Of a stretch of 64,000 nucleotides of DNA, positions 31,304 through 54,204 are shown piece after piece; within the stretch, counting starts at the first letter, position 1; each line of letters starts with the position of its first letter. Below the pieces are notes generated by a model, which worked only from the letters and a program-made list of their open reading frames with translations, searched no databases and was not told where the DNA came from. The position numbers and the translations under genes are program-made. This DNA is from a virus. The DNA lies in IMG/VR virus record IMGVR_UViG_3300045988_039373, positions 22,795 to 86,794 of that record; one strand, written 5' to 3'.

Positions 31304-33154
31304 TTACCCCAAATTAAATACGTATTCATAAGTAATTGTTGCAGCATTCTGAGTTATGTTGACTGTAAGCTCCCAACCCTCATCATCGTTTTCTGCTTGC
31401 CTTAATTTAATGGTACCTGACCTTGTTGATTCTACGGTGTTCTCCGTTAAGGTTAAGGTTAACCCATAGTTTCCATTATCACTGGATAGTGTTGTAATGG
31501 CTACATTTGTAACCCAACTTGGTTTTGAAGTTACGGTTAAAGCCAAGGGATATCTTGTACTTACCTCAGAACCATTTATTACCTTAGTCTTAAAAGAATA
31601 AGCTACATCAACTGTAAAGTTATTACCTCCCAAAGCTGACAATCCGGTTCTAGTGGTAGTTCTTGAACCAGTAGGGGAAGTGAATGCCAAGTAATACTTA
31701 TAAGATACTGAAGCAGCACTCTGTGTAACTGTGATTGTCTTAGTAGTTGCCCCACTATAGGATGCAGTTACTACACAGCTTCTACTTGAAGTACCCGAGT
31801 TCTCCGTAGCAGTAAGTACCGTCTTAGCAGCATTCAAACTAAAACCAGTACCACTTGCACTAACCGTAGGTGTAGCACTCTTCGAAGAACCTGCACTTGT
31901 TGACCCTGAACTCCAATGGTTGGTAGTAGGTATACTTACACTGGCATAAATATTAACACTACCTCCTGAATTAGAGATAGAGTATGAACTTGCAAATAAG
32001 CTTATTACTGGTGTACCATCAGTAGTACTGGTAATTTTATTCTCTGCCTGGTATACATCGAGAGTTATAGATTTCGATTTACCATTCAGAGATACAGTAC
32101 AAGTAAGGGAGCCTACCCTTGTTCTAGCCTTTGCAGTAGTTCCCAAAGAACCTGCACTAACTGCAGTACCATAACTAATGCTAGCACCGCTTGTAATTGT
32201 GCCTCCTCCAGTTGTAGAACCATTCCATCCCCAAGTCTGAGAATATGAGGGCATAGTTGAGAATGAACTTCTACTTCCTCCACTTGCAGGTATATCGGAT
32301 ACACTTCCTCCACTTACAGTGATTTCACTATAGGTTCTATAACCTGCAGATTGAGAACAACTGATAGTTAGTTTCTTATTGGTTTCTGCCTGAGTTAATA
32401 CTACACTACCCGACTTTGCCGAAGTAGAAGTATTATTTGCCATAGTTACTGAAGTACCAGTACCGGTAACTCCGGTATTAGCCCTGGTATAACTTAAGGG
32501 AATTTGATTACCATAGGTATGTCCATTTCGGTATTCCTGTTTATAAGAGGTTACAGTAAATGTTTTTGTTCCTCCAGTTGCCCCAAAAGACAGAGAAGTG
32601 GGATTCACTGAGAATGTTTGAGACCAACTTTGAGATGCTGCTGCCTGGGTAAATGTGAATTCCACGGTTTTACCAGATTCAGATTGAGTAGCCAACCCCT
32701 TACCAGACCTTGAGGTTAGGTCTAGATTCCCTGAAGCTTTCCAAGGCTTTCCATCTGCCGGCTTACTATAGTTAGTAATCCAACTTGGTTTACTGTTTAT
32801 TACGTAATTAACACTAACAGCAGACCCATTAGCTACATTATCCCAATATTTCTGCTTCGTACTGGTAAACTCAAAATCAAAATTAGAACTACTGGGGTTA
32901 CCTAAAGCATCAAAACTTATACTGGAGTATCTCAAAGTGAATGTATACTTATAAGTTACCTTATGAATATCTTCGAGTTTAACAGCTTCGTTATTACCAT
33001 AGGAACTAGCATTGGAGATTTCCAAGCCAACGTAACTTTCCCCCGTTCCTGTAGAGGCGAGTGCTAACAATTCAGCCTTGGTAGGGCAGTCATTACCTGT
33101 CTTACCAAGGCCTACTTTAGTTTTGACAGCACTCCATGTTGCTATCTCTCCCAT
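31304..33154 (-). CDS. Ser/Thr-rich multi-BACON/Ig-like domain virion protein (616 aa)
   Basis: Repeated module ends VEFTFTQAAAS, KLTISCSQSAG, KSITLDVYQAEN, KTITVTQSAAS, LTVNITQNAAT. Also KPSWITNY / KPSWVTNV and ...STRSGTIKLRQ. Confidence 0.6.
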   Translation of the reverse strand: MGEIATWSAVKTKVGLGKTGNDCPTKAELLALASTGTGESYVGLEISNASSYGNNEAVKLEDIHKVTYKYTFTLRYSSISFDALGNPSSSNFDFEFTSTKQKYWDNVANGSAVSVNYVINSKPSWITNYSKPADGKPWKASGNLDLTSRSGKGLATQSESGKTVEFTFTQAAASQSWSQTFSVNPTSLSFGATGGTKTFTVTSYKQEYRNGHTYGNQIPLSYTRANTGVTGTGTSVTMANNTSTSAKSGSVVLTQAETNKKLTISCSQSAGYRTYSEITVSGGSVSDIPASGGSRSSFSTMPSYSQTWGWNGSTTGGGTITSGASISYGTAVSAGSLGTTAKARTRVGSLTCTVSLNGKSKSITLDVYQAENKITSTTDGTPVISLFASSYSISNSGGSVNIYASVSIPTTNHWSSGSTSAGSSKSATPTVSASGTGFSLNAAKTVLTATENSGTSSRSCVVTASYSGATTKTITVTQSAASVSYKYYLAFTSPTGSRTTTRTGLSALGGNNFTVDVAYSFKTKVINGSEVSTRYPLALTVTSKPSWVTNVAITTLSSDNGNYGLTLTLTENTVESTRSGTIKLRQAENDDEGWELTVNITQNAATITYEYVFNLG

Positions 33155-33155
33155 A

Positions 33156-36100
33156 TTAATCTACATCTTTAAGATTTCTGAGTTCTGAGATTTCAGCCTT
33201 CAAAGCCTTAATCTCTTCGTAAAGAAGTTTAATACCTTCGATTGCCAGAGTAGACATCTTATGGTACTTAACTTGTTTTACCAATACATATTCTTCACCG
33301 TCGATAACAACCGTTTCGAATTCCTCAGGATTAGGAACTGAATCCTTAGTTCTTGGGTCTTCTTCCACATAATGGTTAAACCCTGCTGCTTCCAAACCTT
33401 GTGCAATGGTACCTTCATCTTCCTTACCATCCATGATAAAGGATTCTGTAGGTATACTGCAAATCTGTTCCAAAGTATGGGTTAATGGTTTGATGTTAGA
33501 TTTCAATCTTTCATCGGAAGACTCTTTCCAGAAACCGGAAGGAGCAGTAGTCTTAGCAAATACTACCTGGTCAGTAGTTGCCAATCCCAATTGAGCTCTA
33601 GTTACTGTATGAGGATTATCCTTTCTACCTGCATGACTATTGATAGAAGTCTGAGCAGTAGTACCTGCAGCCTTAGCATCAGCAATAGCAGTAGCTTGAG
33701 CAGTAGATACTGGCTTATCAGCATCAGAAGTATTATTAACATTACCCAATCCAACCTGAGTTTTAGTAACTGTATGAGGATTAGATTTATTGGCAATGTG
33801 ATTATTTACCTTAGTTTCTAAGGCAGTTACATCTGAACCAGTATCGGCAATCAAATCGTCAACGTAAGTTTTCAATTCTGTACGAAGAGCATTGATGGCA
33901 TTAGTTCTATTGGTAATCTCATTTGCCAACCCCTGTACGGTATTATCCAAGTTAGTCTTATCTGCTGCAGTCATTACACCTGCAGTAGTCTTAGTTGCTG
34001 CAAGTATATCTCTAATTAAATCTGTAGCACCTTCATAAGTCTTACCCTCTGCACTCTTAGTTTTATTATTAAGAGTAGCTCTTACATTAGTTGAATTATG
34101 GGTAAGAGTGAATCCAGTAAGAATAATTCCTGGAAGAGAACTATTAAAGGTATCATGAGCATTATCTTTTGCAATACGGGCCTCTTGTTCAGCTTCAATA
34201 GCATCTGGTAAGGTTTGATTAAGCTTTATTACACTATCGGCATCCATCAGACCAGCTTCTTGAGTAGTGGCTGGGGTTAGAGGGATTACCATCCCATCGG
34301 GTTTATCAATGTAATGCCCTTGACCATCCGTAGCAGAATAGTTACATAAGATAATAACATTACGCTTATTTTTGTTAGCTATTGAAACCTTACTAATTAA
34401 ATTTTTAGGCATGCTAGATACCACATCCTCAAGATGCTTACCTCTACTACCTTCGAAAGCAGTACCTGCGATTTCCCCAATGATAAGAGACGAAGTATTA
34501 CTGTCTACGAATTTAGTACCTGACCAACGGAATTGGTATGGAGGTTCACCATCGGCAACATTTATATAAATCTTACCAGATTCTCCAACTACGGGAGTTT
34601 GGTGACCTGCATCCGTATACAATTGAACATTAGTAAGACCTCCAGTGGGGCTTACATCATAGGTAGCATATACTTCAAGTACATCATCTACATATGAAGG
34701 CAAATGGTTAGCAGGTACTAACCCCTTCCCATCCAATGGAGCAAAGCCATCAGCCTTACCCTTAGTTGCTACAAAGGCATCATGTTTAGCTTCTAGAGTA
34801 TTAATATTATTCTGTAACTTAGTTTCAAGGGTAGTATCTGCCGCAGTTCTATCGGCAATCTCCTTATCAATCCTTGCACCCAATGCAGTATCAGCAGAAG
34901 TACGAGCAGTTGCTTCATCGTTTACAGCTTTAGTAAACTTGGTATCTAAAGCAGTATCTGCAGCTTTTCTATCAGCTACTTCTTGAGCAAGAGCGGCTTC
35001 TGATTTACCGTCCAAAGCTTCGATAGCATCTTTACGGTCCTGAACCTCTTGAGCAATAGCATTGGGTAATGTCTCATCCAGATTAACTTTATCTTGGGCG
35101 GTCATTACACCAGCTTTCTCTGTAGTAGCTGCTGGGATATAAGTAGTCTTATAATCTTCAGGCTCATGAGTATAAATACCCTCTTCTTTTTTAGAAGAGA
35201 AATTATGAGTTAAAGTAACATGACTGCTTTGTTGACCTACCTCAACTGGTTTATCACCAGATAAGATAATAATATTATCTGGTATAGAATCAAACAGCTT
35301 CTTATCTGCTGCAGTTTGTACACCAGCTTTCTCTGTAGTAGAGGCAGGCAATGTAATAGGATTCTGTTCTACTGTACCATCTTCAACTACGGTCTTAGTA
35401 GCAGCTATGCCAACAGTAGTTTCATTGGGAGTTACTGCACCAAGGGCAAAGTTAGCAGTAGAGATTCTATCCAATTCTACCTTATCTTTCGCAGTCATCG
35501 TACCAGCCTTAGTAGCCGATACCTGAGGCAAATCGAAAGTTTCGGTAGTATCAGCATTCAAACCGTTATCCTTAGTTACGGTTACTGTTACCTTATTAGC
35601 ATCAGAAGCTGCAGAGAGATCAGTTAAAGAATTTGGGTCTAACCCATCTAACTTAACCTTGTCTGCTGCAGACATAACTCCAGCAAGAGTTTGAGTTACC
35701 GGAAGTAAATTCTTGGTAGCTTCTACTTCTTCACCATATTGGTTATTTGCCTTATCCTTGGTTGAAGTCTTTACTTTGAAAGAAAGCTGAGTATCTGTTC
35801 GGGTTACAGTACTAACATCGGTAACCATGGTGTCTGGCAAAGCATCGGAAGTACCTTCTTCAGCTTCCAATCTTTCTTCATGGTCATCGGTAATGTTAGT
35901 GAATTTATTATCTAAGGCAGTATCAGCATCGGTTCTGTCCTGAATTTCTTTATCGATACGTTTACCCAAAGCTGTATCGGCAGCAATACGGGCAGCTTCT
36001 TCTGCATCGATGTTATCCTGGAGAACTTTATCTGCGGCCTTTCTTTCCTCTCTCTCTGTATTAAGGTCAGAAGTATTCTGATCAATCTTTGCTTCCAACC

Positions 36101-39100
36101 GAATATCTTCAGCTTTACGAGCAGCAATTTCGTTATTTAACAGATCCGTAATGGCCGTATAATTACCATTGATATTATCCTGAATACCCTGGATTAATTC
36201 CAGGTTACGTTGGATATTAGCAGTATTCTGAGTTACCAGAGCATTAGTAGCATTCAGGGAAGTTAACAACTCTGTACGAGTTTCACTTACAAAAGTTCTC
36301 AGCTCATTTACCGTAGTAGTAAGAGTATTACTCAGGTTAGTGAATGATTGTTGTAAAGTATTATCTCCCTGTTCTCGTAAGTTCTTTTCGGCTTCAAGCT
36401 TATTCTCCAACTCTGTAAGCTTAGCAGTCATAGTTGCTGCAAAGTTGGGGTCATCACCGAGAGCCTTAGCAATCTCTGCCAAAGTGTCCAATACTTCAGG
36501 GGCTGAACCAATAATCTTTTGGATTGCAGCCTCTACTTGTTCTGCATTCTGAAAGTCAGAATCGTTTAATAACTGAGAAACCTTAGTGATATAGTTTGCA
36601 TGTTCTTCGATGCCATCCAACTTGGCATACAGCAAGTCAGTGAAATCATTTGAAGAAAGTACCTTGCCATCTACCTTATCTACCTTCTTATCGTCCATTG
36701 CCTGGTCTGCAGCAATTCTATCTGCTTTCTCCTGAGCAACAGCATTACTGATAAGAGTATCTTGATTAGCTCTTTCAGTTGATTCTTTATCGATATTGGT
36801 TTGAAGTAAAGTATCTCCAGCTAAGCGGTCATTCTTTTCGGTAAGGATATCCTTATTAATACCAGCCATATCATCCTTGTGATTCTGAAGGTTGGTATCA
36901 ATCTTGGCCTCAAGAGAAGTCTCTTTGGCAATTGCTCGGTCTTTCTCTGCATTAATAGCAGTAGTGTTGGCATTTACCTTTGCTTTTAGTTCATTCATAG
37001 CATCGGTATTACCTGCCTCTAGAGAATCAATACGAACTCCCAAAGCATTATCACCAGCAATACGATTTTCCTTTTCTTGTTCAAGCTTAGTGTTAATATT
37101 ACCTACTTCGGATTCCAAAGCTTGTTTGGTATTATCCAACTTAGCAGTAAACTCAGTACTCAAAGCTTTATCAGCTGCAGTACGGTCTGCTACTTCTTTA
37201 TCTAAGTTAACCTGGAGAACTTGGTCGGCAGCCTTTCTTTCTACACTCTCAGTATTAAGGTCGATATTGAGAGTATCGATACGAGAACTCAAGGCACTAT
37301 CAGCATTAGTACGATCAATGATTTCTTCGTTAATCATATCCTTAACTTCCTTGTAGTTATCACCTACAGTCTTAGTTAAGTTTGTGATTGCCTCTGAATT
37401 TCTTTCAATACTATGTTGGTTAGTGGCAATAGCAGTAGTATTTGCATTTACCTGCTCAGTAAGCTCATTACGCAATGTATTGATAGACTCTTGCATACTC
37501 AATGCCAAGTCTGAAATACGTTGGTTAACGTTAGCCAGACTTTGAGTATAGGCTTCATCTGCAGTCTTTCTTTCGGCAATCTCTTTATCCAAGCTAGATT
37601 GAATTGCGGCATCTGCATCTTTACGGTCTTGGATTTCCTTGTTAAGATTGTCTTTTACAACTCCAAGAGCAGCATCACCAATAGCAGACTTATTGTCTAC
37701 ATATTCTTTCAGTTTAGTTTCAAGAGCTGTATCAGCATCCTTACGAGCTTGAACTTCAGCAGCTACCTCAGCACTGTTTGCCTCATCACCCGCAATTCGG
37801 TCTTCGATTTCTTGGTTAACCTGTTCTGTGATTGCAGCCAATTTCTTGGTAATGGTAGCAGCAAAGTTGGGGTCATTTCCAAGGGCATCAGCAATTTCCT
37901 TAAGAGTATCAAGTACTTCTGGAGCAGAACCAATAATCTTTTGGATAGCTGCATTTACCTCTTCCTCAGTTTGGAAACCAGAATCGTTGATAAGCTGAGA
38001 AAGATGCGTAATATAATTTGCCTTTTCCTCAATTCCATCAAGTTTAGCTTTGAGTATATCGGTAAAGTCATTCTTAGTCAAAGAATAGCCTTCACGTTTA
38101 TCTACTTTCTTAGTATCAAGATCTTTATCACCTTTTTCTCTAGCAGCAGCCTCGGCAGCAATAGCATTAAGCAATTGCTCCTTGTCTTCTACACCCTGCT
38201 CTTTTACATCTTCGATTTTGTGTTCAAGAACTAAATCCTGAGCAGCACGAGTAGTAGCCTCTGAATCGATATTGTTCTGTAATACTTGGTCTGCAACAGT
38301 ACGGGCCTGAACTTCTTTATCAATATTACCTTGAAGAGCATTATCTGCATTGGTACGGTCTGTTACCTCTTTAGAGATTTCATTGTGAAGAACTTGGTCC
38401 TCAGAATGACGGTCTACCTTCTCTTGGTCAATTTTACCTTGAAGAGCTAAAGTATCTGCCTGGCGATTAGTGATTTCTTCGTTAATCTTAGAATCCAGTA
38501 CAGTATCTGCGTTAGTACGATTTGCAGTTTCTTCTGCAATCTTTGACTCAAGGGATGCCTTATCATTGATATGGAGAGTTTTAAGGTCATTTACACTTTC
38601 CTTAATCTCATTATCGGCAGCAATACGTTCATCTTTTTCCTTTTGGATAAGATCCTTGAGTTCCTTCTCAAGTTCACCATTACCTTGATTTACCTTATCT
38701 TCAAGGTCTTTGATATCTTCAGCATTCTTATCTACCTTCTTCTCAACTCGGTCGATTTCAGCTTTTAAGTCTGCCTTAACGGTATCAATCTTCTTATTGA
38801 TTTGGTCTAACCCATATTCTAGGTTATCCTGAACTGCAGCTACTGCAGCACCCAGAGCAGCTTCGGCTTCCTTAGCACGATTAACCTCTTCGGTTAAAGC
38901 AGTACGAAGGTCGGTTAATTTATTAGTGATAGTAGTTGCAAAGTTGGGGTCATTGCCCAATGCTTCTGCCAACTCTTTAAGAGTATCAAGGGCATCATCA
39001 GCACCATCAACCAAATCACTAATCATCTGTTTAACTTCTTCCTCAGTTTGATATTTCAAATCATTCTCAAGCTGAGAAACTTTAGTGATATAATTTGCAT

Positions 39101-39320
39101 GTTCTTCGATGCCATCAAGTTTAGCCTTCAACTCATCGGTAAAATCATTTTTCGATAAGTCGTATCCTTCTTTCTTATCTACCTTATTCTTGATAGAAAG
39201 TACGAAGGCCCAGAACTCATTTATAGTTCCCCCAAAGCCAGCACGAACAAAGTCATCATAGTAACCCTGTAACAACCGCTGGTCAATCTCTTCGCAGGTG
39301 TAATATTTACTTACATACAT
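33156..39320 (-). CDS. Giant (2054 aa) coiled-coil fibre protein with a C-terminal S74-type intramolecular chaperone domain
   Basis: Three copies of a ~91-aa module containing LDTLKELAEALGNDPNFA (phage fibre repeat). Six copies of T-x-x-AGVMTAxDKxKLD. Contains NPHTVTKTQVGLGNVNNTSDADKPVS, and SSDERLKSNIKPL opens the S74 chaperone domain. Confidence 0.85.
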   Translation of the reverse strand: MYVSKYYTCEEIDQRLLQGYYDDFVRAGFGGTINEFWAFVLSIKNKVDKKEGYDLSKNDFTDELKAKLDGIEEHANYITKVSQLENDLKYQTEEEVKQMISDLVDGADDALDTLKELAEALGNDPNFATTITNKLTDLRTALTEEVNRAKEAEAALGAAVAAVQDNLEYGLDQINKKIDTVKADLKAEIDRVEKKVDKNAEDIKDLEDKVNQGNGELEKELKDLIQKEKDERIAADNEIKESVNDLKTLHINDKASLESKIAEETANRTNADTVLDSKINEEITNRQADTLALQGKIDQEKVDRHSEDQVLHNEISKEVTDRTNADNALQGNIDKEVQARTVADQVLQNNIDSEATTRAAQDLVLEHKIEDVKEQGVEDKEQLLNAIAAEAAAREKGDKDLDTKKVDKREGYSLTKNDFTDILKAKLDGIEEKANYITHLSQLINDSGFQTEEEVNAAIQKIIGSAPEVLDTLKEIADALGNDPNFAATITKKLAAITEQVNQEIEDRIAGDEANSAEVAAEVQARKDADTALETKLKEYVDNKSAIGDAALGVVKDNLNKEIQDRKDADAAIQSSLDKEIAERKTADEAYTQSLANVNQRISDLALSMQESINTLRNELTEQVNANTTAIATNQHSIERNSEAITNLTKTVGDNYKEVKDMINEEIIDRTNADSALSSRIDTLNIDLNTESVERKAADQVLQVNLDKEVADRTAADKALSTEFTAKLDNTKQALESEVGNINTKLEQEKENRIAGDNALGVRIDSLEAGNTDAMNELKAKVNANTTAINAEKDRAIAKETSLEAKIDTNLQNHKDDMAGINKDILTEKNDRLAGDTLLQTNIDKESTERANQDTLISNAVAQEKADRIAADQAMDDKKVDKVDGKVLSSNDFTDLLYAKLDGIEEHANYITKVSQLLNDSDFQNAEQVEAAIQKIIGSAPEVLDTLAEIAKALGDDPNFAATMTAKLTELENKLEAEKNLREQGDNTLQQSFTNLSNTLTTTVNELRTFVSETRTELLTSLNATNALVTQNTANIQRNLELIQGIQDNINGNYTAITDLLNNEIAARKAEDIRLEAKIDQNTSDLNTEREERKAADKVLQDNIDAEEAARIAADTALGKRIDKEIQDRTDADTALDNKFTNITDDHEERLEAEEGTSDALPDTMVTDVSTVTRTDTQLSFKVKTSTKDKANNQYGEEVEATKNLLPVTQTLAGVMSAADKVKLDGLDPNSLTDLSAASDANKVTVTVTKDNGLNADTTETFDLPQVSATKAGTMTAKDKVELDRISTANFALGAVTPNETTVGIAATKTVVEDGTVEQNPITLPASTTEKAGVQTAADKKLFDSIPDNIIILSGDKPVEVGQQSSHVTLTHNFSSKKEEGIYTHEPEDYKTTYIPAATTEKAGVMTAQDKVNLDETLPNAIAQEVQDRKDAIEALDGKSEAALAQEVADRKAADTALDTKFTKAVNDEATARTSADTALGARIDKEIADRTAADTTLETKLQNNINTLEAKHDAFVATKGKADGFAPLDGKGLVPANHLPSYVDDVLEVYATYDVSPTGGLTNVQLYTDAGHQTPVVGESGKIYINVADGEPPYQFRWSGTKFVDSNTSSLIIGEIAGTAFEGSRGKHLEDVVSSMPKNLISKVSIANKNKRNVIILCNYSATDGQGHYIDKPDGMVIPLTPATTQEAGLMDADSVIKLNQTLPDAIEAEQEARIAKDNAHDTFNSSLPGIILTGFTLTHNSTNVRATLNNKTKSAEGKTYEGATDLIRDILAATKTTAGVMTAADKTNLDNTVQGLANEITNRTNAINALRTELKTYVDDLIADTGSDVTALETKVNNHIANKSNPHTVTKTQVGLGNVNNTSDADKPVSTAQATAIADAKAAGTTAQTSINSHAGRKDNPHTVTRAQLGLATTDQVVFAKTTAPSGFWKESSDERLKSNIKPLTHTLEQICSIPTESFIMDGKEDEGTIAQGLEAAGFNHYVEEDPRTKDSVPNPEEFETVVIDGEEYVLVKQVKYHKMSTLAIEGIKLLYEEIKALKAEISELRNLKDVD
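33159..33534 (-). other. Peptidase_S74-like auto-cleaving chaperone domain of the fibre
   Basis: ESSDERLKSNIKPLTHTLEQICSIPTESF... The Ser-Asp-Glu-Arg-Leu-Lys start is encoded at 33511-33534. Confidence 0.7.
36414..36686 (-). repeat. Fibre internal repeat, copy 3 (offset 2499 nt from copy 1)
   Basis: KVDKVDGKVLSSNDFTDLLYAKLDGIEEHANYITKVSQL...LDTLAEIAKALGDDPNFAATMT. Confidence 0.8.
37836..38108 (-). repeat. Fibre internal repeat, copy 2 (offset 1077 nt from copy 1)
   Basis: KVDKREGYSLTKNDFTDILKAKLDGIEEKANYITHLSQL...LDTLKEIADALGNDPNFAATIT. Confidence 0.8.
38913..39185 (-). repeat. Fibre internal repeat, copy 1 (aa 46-136)
   Basis: KVDKKEGYDLSKNDFTDELKAKLDGIEEHANYITKVSQL...LDTLKELAEALGNDPNFATTIT. 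Confidence 0.8.
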
Positions 39321-41597: not shown

Positions 41598-41635
41598 GAG
41601 AGGATAGGTCTTTTTTTTTAGTTACCTACCCTCTC
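41598..41635 (-). terminator. Hairpin after the major capsid gene
   Basis: 12-bp stem GAGAGGATAGGT / ACCTACCCTCTC with one mismatch and a T-rich loop. Confidence 0.55.
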
Positions 41636-41670: not shown

Positions 41671-42792
41671 TTATTCTAGGTTAACCATCAAATATGGGTC
41701 TACGTTCATGAACTCGGGGAAGCCGAATTCTGAGAACTTCTTGTCAGCAGCCAGCAACAGAGTTGCATCCTGGTACATCTTAGAGAAGCCAGTAGTCAAG
41801 CTTGCATAGATTGCCTGAGTCTGGTTAGAAACGATTCTTTCAGATTCAAGCATCAACTGACGAGCAGTAAGCTTAATCAAGGCAGCAGATGTATCAATCA
41901 ACAGCAACTGTTGGTCGGGTGTACCCGGGTGAATGTAGAAGTCAGCATTCTTGGGAACAGGAGACTTAACATTCAGGGTAGCTTCTGTAGTACCAGAGTG
42001 ACGATCCTTGAATTCCGGCAAGTTCAGCATTTCGATTGCCTGGTCTTCACCACCAATCATAGTTTGGAAGTTACGTCCCATACGAGCAGCACGTACCCAA
42101 ATATGCAGAAGGTCTTTGTAAGTGATACCATTAGTTGTTTCGTATACACCGATTACCGGGGCAGACTCAGAGCCATCAGGGTTGTTACCATTGATAGCAA
42201 CGTCCATAGCCAGAGTATCCAGAGCATAACCCAACTGAACGCCAAAATCACGAAGGTAGATTCCCAAGACATCGAGCGAAACATAGTTACGAACTTCATC
42301 AGTAAGTTTGAAACCTTTTCCGATTTTGAAGAGGCTAACTGATTTCTGTCCGAAGCTAACATCACCCAATGGGATAGTTTCTGCCTCATTAACCTTTGCA
42401 GGGGCAGCATCCGACATGTTAACCATCGGCATGATTGCTTGTAAACCATTGATTGGTTGGTCAGATGCAATGATATTTGGATAGAACGGAGCCTGGCGCA
42501 TACCCAATGTGATAGCAGCACGGATGATTTCCGGAACAATCCAACGAATATTCTGTTGGGGCATTGTAAAGATGTTCTGCATCGTGTCCACTTTTGGATT
42601 GATGCCCATCTTTTCAAAAAGTTCATCTTCTGAAATACCCCATTTACCGGTAACCAATTCTCCAAAAGTTACCTCTACAGGCTTCTTGTCCTGTGAACCG
42701 GAACGAACAGCTTCCAAGCTTCTTACCATTTCCGGCAGCTCATTCATAAAATCCTGAGCCTTCAACTTTGTAATATCTATTTTATTTTCCAT
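41671..42792 (-). CDS. Major capsid protein (HK97-fold expected)
   Basis: 373 aa, downstream of the protease/scaffold gene and a small decoration-like gene, and followed by a hairpin. Call is from position and size. Confidence 0.7.
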   Translation of the reverse strand: MENKIDITKLKAQDFMNELPEMVRSLEAVRSGSQDKKPVEVTFGELVTGKWGISEDELFEKMGINPKVDTMQNIFTMPQQNIRWIVPEIIRAAITLGMRQAPFYPNIIASDQPINGLQAIMPMVNMSDAAPAKVNEAETIPLGDVSFGQKSVSLFKIGKGFKLTDEVRNYVSLDVLGIYLRDFGVQLGYALDTLAMDVAINGNNPDGSESAPVIGVYETTNGITYKDLLHIWVRAARMGRNFQTMIGGEDQAIEMLNLPEFKDRHSGTTEATLNVKSPVPKNADFYIHPGTPDQQLLLIDTSAALIKLTARQLMLESERIVSNQTQAIYASLTTGFSKMYQDATLLLAADKKFSEFGFPEFMNVDPYLMVNLE

Positions 42793-48882: not shown

Positions 48883-49938
48883 TCATGGTTTCTTGGTATT
48901 TGCCTTTTTGAGGCATTCCTTAAACCAATAACCTATTTCACCTACTGCCCCTTTGGCAATTGTATATCTTGCCTTGTTAAGCCAGTAATGGTAATCCTTA
49001 AAATCACCCTCGAAGGTATCACCATTTTTGTGAAGGTAGATTTCGAATTTATCGGGGAATCCCATAATTGCCTTGAAGTCTTCGATTCCCAAAGGGTAGC
49101 CATCGGGTCTAAATTGCCTATCTGCAGGTCTGAGAGTTAAGGGAGGTTTATCATACTCCAATCGATACACTCCTGGAAGAGTACTCATCTTTGCAGTTTT
49201 GATAGGCCATTTCTTTTCATCCTTGAAATCTCTAACCCAGAGTCTATGTATCTTTGCTACCGTGAGATTCTTCTTCTCAGGAAGCTTTCGATAGTCATAC
49301 ATTGCCAGAGTTTTACTCATGAACGGAATCTGGTTAGTATTATTTTCCTGAGAAAATGTGAGTGGTTTTAGTAAATTTCTAGTAGTTGTTGGGGTTTTTA
49401 CTTTAAATACTTCATCAAAAGCCTTCAAGTATTTCTTACCGGTCTTTTTATGTACTCCAATGATGAGTAATCGCTTCCTTGATTCCTGAGAGTTTCCGTA
49501 GTCTAAAACTGACCTTTCGTGAAAAATTAATTTATAGTCTTTGAATGTTTCCTCAAAGAAATCCTTGGGAAGCAATGTTAGCAGTCTTGGTAGATTTTCT
49601 ATAAGAAATATCTTGGGTTTATACTCGAGTATTGATGCAATTACTAGATTAAGACTACGGTTATCTTTAGGATTACCCAATTCCTTTACTTTGGATAACC
49701 TCATTACTGAGGCTGCTCCGCAATCAGGGCTTGATATAATTATGTCTACTTTCTCATTGAATTCTTGTAAACAAAAGCCCTTATAGAACGGTATATCCCC
49801 AAAATTTAATTTCCATTGTTCTTCGCCTGGAGTGTGGAATACTCCCCTTATCTCTATGTTCCCTAACAAATTCTTCTTAAAAGGGAACAGGAGTGCACCC
49901 TGTCCAGCGCACACTCCCAATACCCTTAACTTTTTCAT
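48883..49938 (-). CDS. DNA (cytosine-5) methyltransferase with a variant catalytic motif
   Basis: Motif I LGVCAGQGALLFPF, motif IV-like SSPDCGAAS (P-D-C instead of P-C-Q), motif VI FLIENLPRL, motif VIII QESRKRLLIIGV, and a motix X-like TIAKGAVGEI. Confidence 0.7.
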   Translation of the reverse strand: MKKLRVLGVCAGQGALLFPFKKNLLGNIEIRGVFHTPGEEQWKLNFGDIPFYKGFCLQEFNEKVDIIISSPDCGAASVMRLSKVKELGNPKDNRSLNLVIASILEYKPKIFLIENLPRLLTLLPKDFFEETFKDYKLIFHERSVLDYGNSQESRKRLLIIGVHKKTGKKYLKAFDEVFKVKTPTTTRNLLKPLTFSQENNTNQIPFMSKTLAMYDYRKLPEKKNLTVAKIHRLWVRDFKDEKKWPIKTAKMSTLPGVYRLEYDKPPLTLRPADRQFRPDGYPLGIEDFKAIMGFPDKFEIYLHKNGDTFEGDFKDYHYWLNKARYTIAKGAVGEIGYWFKECLKKANTKKP

Positions 49939-52510: not shown

Positions 52511-53248
52511 TTAAGTTGGAGCTACCCAATAAAAATTCAAATCTAATGGATATTTTTTAGTGGGGTTAAACCTACTGGAGAGTATAGGAGTATCACTGCT
52601 AGCAGAGGGAGTTGAAACTTTTGTAAGAGTATAGGAACCCAATCCAGTTGTTTTTGTTGTAAAGTATGAATTACTTGGTAAATTGTAGTTAGGCATAAAA
52701 GCATTACCATTCTTATCGAGGCAGGACCAAGACAACATGTTGAAATTTCCCGGGTACAGGTTAGCAATATAGACATTAATAGCATATCTATTTTGATTTA
52801 CTATCCAATTCTTATTTCTGTTACCATCAGCCATAGATCCACCTTCGCCACTAATATTGGTAGTAACCTTAAAAAAAGCACTCGTGTCTACTCCATTGAT
52901 GGTTATAGGATTAAAATGTATTTCCCAATATTCTTTTTCTTCGGGAGTAGTAAGGTGTAGATTTATTTTATTACCAGATTCATTTTGTGTAAGTATACAA
53001 AGCCCAGAAGTACCGTCATTTCGTGCAGTAATCTGAATACTATTGTTACTCTTGTCTTCCTCCAGAACATAGTCCGGGGTATTGATGCTAGCAGAATAAC
53101 CAACTCCAATAACCCCGGACAATTTGCCATTTACATACTTACTCTTTTGAGATTGTATTGTCCATCTCTCAGAGTTTCCCTGTCTTATTTCTGCATATAC
53201 ATCTTTGGTGGATCCCCCCCCCCCTAATTTAAGAACTTTATTTTCCAT
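52511..53248 (-). CDS. Beta-rich secreted/virion-type protein carrying a G11 tract in codons 9-12
   Basis: MENKVLKLGGGGSTKDVY... ATG verified. Lies downstream of a BACON-like gene. Confidence 0.6.
   Translation of the reverse strand: MENKVLKLGGGGSTKDVYAEIRQGNSERWTIQSQKSKYVNGKLSGVIGVGYSASINTPDYVLEEDKSNNSIQITARNDGTSGLCILTQNESGNKINLHLTTPEEKEYWEIHFNPITINGVDTSAFFKVTTNISGEGGSMADGNRNKNWIVNQNRYAINVYIANLYPGNFNMLSWSCLDKNGNAFMPNYNLPSNSYFTTKTTGLGSYTLTKVSTPSASSDTPILSSRFNPTKKYPLDLNFYWVAPT
53214..53224 (-). repeat. Homopolymer G11 (C11 on the plus strand) inside the 5' end of the coding sequence
   Basis: The plus strand reads gat-ccccccccccc-taat. The coding strand reads TTA GGG GGG GGG GGA TCC. Confidence 0.95.
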
Positions 53249-53262
53249 AATGTATAATGTTT

Positions 53263-54204
53263 TTAGATTGATACTGTTCCTCCTGCACTTGGTACTATAA
53301 ATGACCCCTCTGATATCCAGGTAGCACCCGATTTAGTATATACAGCTACTTTATCTCCAGTAGTACATTCTATTCGAGAACCAGGTTCTGAGTCATTGGC
53401 ATAGAATGGAATCTTCATAGTAGTAGTACTAGTTGCTGAGAGACCCTGTATATACATCTGATCTGAAGATGATGTATTCTGTGGCCTAGCTCCCCTGCCA
53501 AAGAGATAGTAGCCTGTACCTGTGGGCAATCCAGAGAGAGTGAATGTTGAAGCCTGTTGTGGCTTCTGAGTTACTGGTATACTAAGGTTAGCATCCCCAC
53601 AGGTTAAGAAGATATGCCCTGAACGGTTAGCTCCAGTTTGATTACTCGATAAAGCGGTCAGGGATAACATGTAATGGTTCTCAAGAGTATCCACTGGGGC
53701 AACGGATACTGAGCACCAATCGGGAGCATTACCCACATGGGGAGTTTCTGGCTTTTTAGACCCATCACTACCCTTTAAATAGGCCATCACAAGGATTTGA
53801 GCAGTATTATATTTATCACTACCTAAAGGCAATGTGTTTGAAACCATTTTTATGTATCCACTATAGGTTACACCAGCCTTCTGAGTTACTGTGAGATTGA
53901 TTTTGTTATTAGACCCATTTTGGGTAAATGTCAGAGTAGTAGACCTTGAGGACCCAGTATTTTTTGAATAGTTAATTTTTACATCTAAGTAACCATCTCC
54001 AACGGTAACTCCTCCCCAAATAGCCCAACTTACGGAGGCTGAGCCCAAAGTACAAGAGGGTGTAGAGGTTGAAACTACTTTGCCATTTACCAGTTTCCTT
54101 TTGAGGGAAGTGATACGGTAGGTTATAGTACCACCCTCTGAAGATACAGTATCTGTACCTGTATCTGTAATTGCACGTGCTAGTTTGAATAATGTTTCTT
54201 CCAT
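53263..54204 (-). CDS. BACON/Ig-like multi-domain protein (313 aa)
   Basis: SVSWAIWGG...NTGSSRSTTLTFTQNGSNNKINLTVTQKAG and APDWCSVSVAP...GANRSGHIFLTCGDANLSIPVTQKPQ. Confidence 0.6.
   Translation of the reverse strand: MEETLFKLARAITDTGTDTVSSEGGTITYRITSLKRKLVNGKVVSTSTPSCTLGSASVSWAIWGGVTVGDGYLDVKINYSKNTGSSRSTTLTFTQNGSNNKINLTVTQKAGVTYSGYIKMVSNTLPLGSDKYNTAQILVMAYLKGSDGSKKPETPHVGNAPDWCSVSVAPVDTLENHYMLSLTALSSNQTGANRSGHIFLTCGDANLSIPVTQKPQQASTFTLSGLPTGTGYYLFGRGARPQNTSSSDQMYIQGLSATSTTTMKIPFYANDSEPGSRIECTTGDKVAVYTKSGATWISEGSFIVPSAGGTVSI

Follow-up and report, generated by a model that had tools for sequence, protein, structure and literature searches.

The 245-amino-acid (aa) open reading frame (ORF) described here occupies positions 52511..53248 on the minus strand of the window, by which we mean the whole 64,000-nucleotide stretch of viral DNA that was analyzed, itself part of an 86,794-bp contig. 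Close to its 5' end the ORF contains a hypermutable G11 homopolymer (53214..53224, minus strand; C11 on the plus strand). Read on the minus strand, the ORF begins ATG GAA AAT AAA GTT CTT AAA TTA GGG GGG GGG GGA TCC (MENKVLKLGGGGS), and the window sequence and the ORF (53248..52511) together place the tract in codons 9-12, 24 nt past the ATG, exactly where the first-pass annotation had put it. The tract is preceded by the ATG and eight conserved N-terminal codons (MENKVLKL; 53225..53248, minus strand), which are common to 152 relatives and were used as an anchor. Immediately 3' of the tract, GATCC (53209..53213, minus strand) marks the boundary of the variable stretch. A 6-bp palindrome with GATC always lies directly after the tract, GGATCC here (window 53209-53214) and AGATCT in most relatives, and the same phage has a DNA methyltransferase gene (window 48883-49938).

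The gene directly upstream of the tract gene encodes a 313-aa BACON-domain protein (53263..54204, minus strand; Pfam PF13004, E 1.3e-13). A 14-nt spacer (53249..53262, minus strand) separates its stop codon from the ATG of the tract gene, which does, as had been proposed, follow the gene for a BACON-like protein, and no terminator-like site was found between the two genes. Judged from the sequence, the BACON gene and the tract gene are probably co-transcribed. Among the relatives, the BACON gene is confined to the tract-bearing lineage and is absent from tract-less relatives such as L046. The upstream BACON ORF was shortened in approximately 22 of some 125 relatives (fewer than 290 codons from stop to stop versus the usual 310-390), indicating that the two-gene module is plastic as a whole; the BACON gene, shortened in about one genome in six, therefore failed as an always-intact control. 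Downstream of the tract gene lie three plus-strand genes, followed by the endolysin gene, the methyltransferase gene and packaging genes, and the tract gene is located outside the tail module, near the lysis and packaging genes.

The last 55 bases of the contig repeat the first 55, and the assembly is therefore circular. Matches to PHROGs identified a large terminase, portal, maturation protease, major head protein, tail sheath, tape measure protein and endolysin, and Pfam matches identified a family-A DNA polymerase with a 3'-5' exonuclease domain and a DnaB-type helicase. A 2054-aa protein (33156-39320, minus strand), which ends in a Peptidase_S74 (endosialidase chaperone) domain according to Pfam, is probably the main tail fiber; the 616-aa gene next to it (31304-33154, minus strand) gave a sub-threshold BACON match at its C terminus. 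The proposed family "Flandersviridae" was described as having genomes of approximately 85 kb, often recovered as circular assemblies from human gut metagenomes, with a contractile-tail module, PolA, a DnaB-type helicase and BACON-domain genes (Benler et al. 2021, PMC8008677). Set against this published description, the phage fits the family in its sequence features: the contig is 86,794 bp long and circular, and it encodes the sheath, tape measure, major head, portal and large terminase (TerL) proteins, PolA with exonuclease, DnaB and BACON proteins. Relatives of the window phage originate from human gut metagenomes. In the phage collection that we searched, the best TerL matches were metagenomic records with 74-90% identity, and the collection contained neither a DNA or protein match to the tract locus nor a cultured relative.

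The 245-aa protein is a predicted Ig-like protein related to its BACON neighbor

No Pfam or PHROG family matched the 245-aa protein above threshold. There was no BACON (PF13004) match at E <= 0.1, and identity as a CCL2 lectin, at which a weak Pfam match hinted (E 0.045), was unsupported and was dropped. An exhaustive HMMER search of 1.84 billion representatives recovered only 54 clusters, all belonging to one narrow family and mostly fragments, and a PDB profile search with the protein gave no match. In a database clustered at 90% identity we detected 6005 close homologues of the 245-aa protein, from which it follows that the phage group is very common. AlphaFold returned an all-beta model with two beta-sandwich (Ig-like) domains at a mean pLDDT of 71.5, obtained from a shallow alignment of 41 sequences, in keeping with the earlier description of the protein as beta-rich. 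Residues 9-14, the product of the tract, were modeled as a low-confidence loop with a pLDDT of <50. The matches that Foldseek returned from the PDB and BFVD were all to generic tandem Ig-like folds (TM of approximately 0.2-0.35), and they included cadherins, Fabs and phage Ig-like or BACON proteins.

Alignment with hhalign matched residues 1-216 of the 245-aa protein to residues 1-243 of the upstream BACON protein (probability 81%, E 1.2e-5), and comparison of the same two proteins by BLASTP gave an E value of 0.004. These matches indicate that the adjacent genes are diverged paralogues. BACON/Ig-like proteins of Flandersviridae-related myophages have been reported to confer epithelial binding when displayed on another phage (PMC13370021); peptide strings from the 245-aa and BACON proteins were not found in those supplementary files of that study that were searched. 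These comparisons suggest that the 245-aa protein may serve this Flandersviridae-like myophage of Bacteroidota as an accessory protein of the virion, of glycan-binding or adhesin type.

The G11 tract is the only long G/C run in the genome and sets the reading frame

The 86,794-bp genome as a whole, and hence the window, has no G/C run of more than 6 nt other than the G11 tract. Across the genome, G/C runs of lengths 1 to 6 occur 18288, 4574, 1129, 182, 16 and 3 times, respectively, and an independent and identically distributed (i.i.d.) model predicts 0.002 runs of 11 per genome. Long G/C tracts are thus as rare as the first-pass annotation had claimed, in a genome of 36.5% G+C with no other run above 6. 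In long ORFs, GGG makes up 13.8% of the Gly codons, and GGG-GGG codon pairs are found inside the G11 tract only, so that the tract is also unusual in its choice of codons. The tract is genuine and no mere product of chance, and it has the long uninterrupted coding homopolymer, beyond compositional expectation, that is characteristic of contingency loci. In 16 related complete genomes of approximately 87 kb, nearly all runs of G7 or longer were located at the homologous tract site. The longest A/T homopolymers of the genome are two T9 runs (window 41611-41619 and genome C1:10011-10019), the former of which sits in the intergenic gap that separates the major head gene (41671-42792) from the adjacent gene.

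We refer to alleles that keep the ATG in frame with the 245-aa ORF as ON and to all others as OFF; the window allele, G11-ATCC, is an ON allele. One additional G leads to a peptide of approximately 26 aa from the ATG and one G fewer to a peptide of approximately 20 aa, confirming that gain or loss of a single G truncates the protein. Any length change that is not a multiple of 3 switches the 245-aa protein off, because both other frames close within about 20 to 27 codons of the ATG. Both alternative frames are also closed by a stop codon immediately ahead of the tract, and past the tract no in-frame ATG, GTG or TTG occurs before a TTG at codon 43, the first ATG being at codon 139. Given these stops and the appearance of restart candidates only from codon 43, internal restart offers no obvious rescue, and an alternative start codon was disfavored as a candidate on the same grounds.

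Tract length and frame vary among close relatives

Two sets of homologous loci were collected. Set 1 consisted of 80 IMG/VR loci that were retrieved with a protein query and, having been chosen by protein similarity, was biased towards intact ORFs. Set 2 consisted of 90 metagenome loci retrieved with a DNA pattern placed on the conserved flanks only, and was blind to the state of the ORF. The comparison covered 152 genomes, including the window, all of which have the MENKVLKL start. Among these genomes the stretch between the flanks had 60 alleles of 11-21 nt, in which the longest G run ranged from G4 to G11. The copy number of the GA and GGA units beside the tract also varied (for example, G9-AGATCT, G8-AGAGATCT and G9-AGGAGATCT), and in-frame length change was tolerated in the protein, from GGRS to GGGGGRS.

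Sixty-eight genomes were in frame, 53 were at +1 and 31 were at +2, such that 84 of the 152 (55%) were out of frame. The in-frame share of 45% is a modest excess over one third (binomial p = 0.003, with the genomes not being independent samples). The commonest allele was G9-AGATCT, which is in frame, and a longest run of G9 was the usual ON form, being in frame in 37 of 44 genomes. With a longest run of G10 the gene was in frame in 4 of 30 genomes and at +1 in 23, with G8 it was in frame in 3 of 22, and with G7 in 13 of 35. Slips of one unit to either side of an ON allele would be expected to give such a distribution around the in-frame G9. A run of G8 or longer was retained in 100 of the 152 genomes. 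The G11 of the window looks like the common G9-A-G form in which the A has been replaced by G; it is among the longest alleles seen and hence probably among the most mutable.

In a maximum-likelihood tree built from 1 kb of upstream sequence and the ORF, 20 ON tips required 19 state changes, a number not below that obtained with shuffled labels, and the ON/OFF state therefore carries no phylogenetic signal. We then considered pairs of genomes with no more than 1% divergence in the flanks (450 nt). The tract differed in 19 of 26 such pairs when both members had G8 or longer, compared with 1 of 14 when both had G7 or shorter, and this rise of mutability with run length is what slipped-strand mispairing predicts. 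OFF alleles were present in assemblies with 122x and 339x coverage. Frame-shifting length differences between close relatives, another hallmark of a contingency locus, are therefore evident at this site in its 60 alleles and 84 of 152 out-of-frame genomes.

These comparative data from 152 relatives support the original proposal of a slipped-strand phase-variation switch. Two outcomes had been named in advance as speaking against it, namely an invariant tract and a Gly run made up of mixed codons in relatives. Between genomes the tract is not invariant, with 60 alleles and 55% of genomes out of frame, and the tract lineage always has a G-rich run. Mixed codons (GCA GTG GAG AGA) occurred only in a separate sister lineage that lacks the upstream BACON gene (L021, L037, L038, L043, L046, L057, L060, L061, L070, L072-L077 and L079). 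In this tract-less lineage the gene was in frame in 16 of 16 genomes (Fisher p = 1.4e-5). As the sister lineage has neither the BACON gene nor the tract, the tract lies exactly at a mosaic boundary. The sister-lineage homologue of the 245-aa protein starts MEIINFRAVERS (or MEKINFRGGERS, or MEEKTEFRISSSRGGERS), and its gene directly follows two small divergent genes.

Long tracts go together with intact genes

In set 1, an intact ORF of 230-246 codons was found behind the tract in 38 of 39 OFF alleles, and at least 591 substitutions in the ORF included 1 nonsense mutation where approximately 26 would be expected, both figures coming from a set biased towards intact ORFs. In set 2, 20 of the 81 ORFs whose stop lies inside the locus were damaged by deletions, nonsense mutations or other frameshifts, and damage also affected 9 of 40 ON alleles. 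Pairwise dN/dS was approximately 0.6-0.7 and was equal for ON pairs and OFF pairs (approximately 0.65). The proportion of damaged ORFs (about 25%), together with these dN/dS values, indicates that the gene is dispensable and fast-evolving.

The set 2 loci were also divided by frame and tract length. OFF alleles with G8 or longer had 21 intact and 2 broken ORFs, and OFF alleles with G7 or shorter had 9 intact and 9 broken. ON alleles had 21 intact and 5 broken ORFs with G8 or longer and 10 intact and 4 broken with G7 or shorter. The difference in ORF integrity between long and short OFF classes gave a Fisher p of 0.005 on small counts, and the independent events are fewer than those counted because three broken short-tract genomes (L110, L128 and L167) are near-identical. 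These observations suggest that OFF states with a long tract may be short-lived and reversible, and that OFF states with a short tract may be lasting, the gene then decaying. Alternatively, the gene may have died first and the tract decayed afterwards. Whichever order holds, a long tract and a working gene go together.

The damaged loci included recurrent internal deletions in L089, L090, L109 and L143, which join '...GYSAS(I)' to '(S)DTPILSSRFNP...' in the region homologous to window 52511-53248; a pair of short, similar motifs (SASINTP and SASSDTP) flanks the junction. Three of these four loci retain 69 codons of open frame behind the tract, and a nonsense mutation cuts L143 further. With the N-terminal codons, the deleted form would be approximately 80 aa where the tract is in frame, which is the case in L089 only. 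Different deletions were seen in L132, L141, L149, L126 and L110. The start codon was lost from L051 and L028 through deletions between short repeats (homologous to window 53150-53270). In L051 the tract and the first 31 or so codons are also gone, and the end of the BACON gene is fused out of frame to the body of the 245-aa gene; in L028 the start codon was deleted and the tract retained. ATG was replaced by ATA in L006 and in one locus of the metagenome set.

Probable replication slippage and the alternatives to it

We consider that replication slippage at the G run gives rise to heritable variants in which a dispensable Ig-like accessory protein is reversibly ON or OFF, a reading to which we assign a probability of roughly 0.7. 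The run would gain or lose G's by slipped-strand mispairing during replication of the phage DNA, a slip out of frame would turn the 245-aa protein off and a further slip would turn it on again, while an in-frame change would merely lengthen or shorten the disordered Gly loop. Phage populations would accordingly be mixed, some particles or lineages having the 245-aa protein and others lacking it. Within populations the switch may be reversible, and selection may maintain the tract.

Length differences could in principle be homopolymer sequencing or assembly errors, as Illumina reads are error-prone at long G runs and many of the assemblies have low coverage. However, run lengths range from G4 to G11, substitutions and changes of GA/GGA units are found among the alleles, OFF alleles are seen at 122-339x coverage, the same short-tract allele recurs in identical genomes from different samples, and variability tracks tract length in the expected way. 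The allele range, the high coverage and the stability of short alleles across samples exclude sequencing error as the main cause, and we regard this explanation as scarcely credible. It is also improbable, if somewhat less so, that slippage of RNA polymerase or ribosomal frameshifting restores the frame during expression, such that the frame of the DNA hardly matters. All three frames are common in natural genomes, as this would allow, and long homopolymers promote transcriptional slippage, although this is best documented for A/T runs. Such rescue is conceivable for long runs. Nevertheless, 37 of 44 G9 genomes are in frame, which implies that selection acts on the frame of the DNA, and G5-G7 alleles, whose runs are too short for efficient slippage, are out of frame in 29 of 48 cases and go with broken ORFs. 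A programmed frameshift or programmed transcriptional slippage should conserve both tract length and an out-of-frame arrangement, whereas here length and frame vary freely.

A more serious competitor, which we still consider unlikely, is that a dispensable accessory gene is decaying, with loss in many lineages, and that the tract is no more than its mutational hotspot, where slippage is real, switching is unselected and the poly-G is simply the weakest point. The further disruptions in about 25% of set 2 genomes, with recurrent internal deletions among them, would fit such decay, as would a dN/dS of approximately 0.65 that is the same for ON and OFF pairs, the 55% of genomes that are out of frame and the shortening of the upstream BACON ORF in about one genome in six. 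However, a neutral tract should shrink or become interrupted, and yet 100 of 152 genomes have G8 or longer in phages where G7 runs are otherwise nearly absent. Furthermore, long-tract OFF alleles were intact in 21 of 23 cases, G9 was in frame in 37 of 44, and the at least 591 substitutions of set 1, a set biased towards intact ORFs, contained 1 nonsense mutation against approximately 26 expected. We favor replication slippage that produces reversible variants over decay at a hotspot.

We propose only tentatively, as a possibility that we hold to be rather doubtful, that selection keeps the poly-G as a bet-hedging switch of an Ig-like (BACON-type) virion adhesin or decoration protein in a phage group that ranks among the most prevalent of the human gut. 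Under bet-hedging, particles with and without the glycan-binding module would be kept in each population, and binding to host capsule or mucus would be traded against a cost such as recognition by a host defense or immune system. If this were true, second-order selection for mutability in a virus would have left its signature in the link between a long tract and an intact ORF.

Relation to known contingency loci

Hypermutable polyG tracts are known from receptor-binding-protein genes of Fletchervirus phages of Campylobacter jejuni (Sorensen et al. 2021, Cell Rep 35:109214; PMC12823448, PMC11959909). The two systems share an uninterrupted poly-G in the coding sequence of a lytic myophage gene, the length of which sets the frame. 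Fletchervirus tracts are reported to give phenotypically mixed phage populations, and the window locus may do likewise. The window locus differs in phage family and host phylum, since its phage is Flandersviridae-like and infects Bacteroidota instead of Campylobacter, in having one tract per genome and in affecting a small Ig-like BACON paralogue outside the tail module instead of a demonstrated receptor-binding protein.

Phages T2 and T4 have homopolymer contingency loci, such as the A-run in T2 agt, at which reversion is approximately 1000-fold faster than point mutation (Gomez, Barrick & Waters, bioRxiv 10.1101/2025.10.21.683753). There, reversible +/-1 frameshifts in the homopolymer of a dispensable gene create ON and OFF subpopulations, and the window locus appears alike in this respect. 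In contrast, the T2/T4 loci are A-runs of about 6-9 bases, of which there are dozens per genome, and here there is one G11 and no other long G/C run; the phenotype of the T2/T4 loci is escape from defined defense systems (bioRxiv 10.1101/2025.10.21.683753). Bacterial homopolymeric contingency loci are found in surface-structure genes of Campylobacter, Neisseria and Haemophilus (review PMC11868660). The window locus resembles them in the position of the tract near the 5' end of a putative surface- or binding-type gene, in its length-dependent mutability and in the scatter of ON and OFF states on the phylogeny; it differs in being virus-borne, and a benefit, if there is one, would lie in the properties of the virion or the success of infection and not in cell-surface antigens. 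As a diverged BACON paralogue, the 245-aa protein can also be likened to the BACON/Ig-like adhesins of crAss-like and Flandersviridae-related gut phages (PMC13370021) as a candidate adhesin, although it falls below Pfam thresholds.

In our literature searches, we came across no comparable tract reported from Flandersviridae or from other phages of Bacteroidota. The locus would extend the contingency principle of phages to uncultured, highly prevalent Bacteroidota phages of the human gut, with unusually rich support from natural populations (152 genomes and 60 alleles), and it singles out a dispensable Ig-like gene; having or lacking this gene seems to matter in the gut. In practice, about half of the genomes will be annotated by gene callers as lacking the tract gene or carrying a truncated one, and the tract may be a point at which assemblies break. 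A contig end lay no more than 3 kb upstream of the gene in 22 of the 80 IMG/VR loci, and within approximately 650 nt in 10 of these. In 4 of the 80 (L049, L020, L028 and L050) the end was within approximately 170 nt of the tract, where a rough estimate gives about 0.4 expected, and others of these loci with a nearby contig end were L017, L024, L031, L044, L063 and L069. Contig ends near the gene thus far exceed those expected from random linearization of a circle of approximately 86 kb, and they may reflect assembly breaks at a heterogeneous tract or at repeated BACON sequence.
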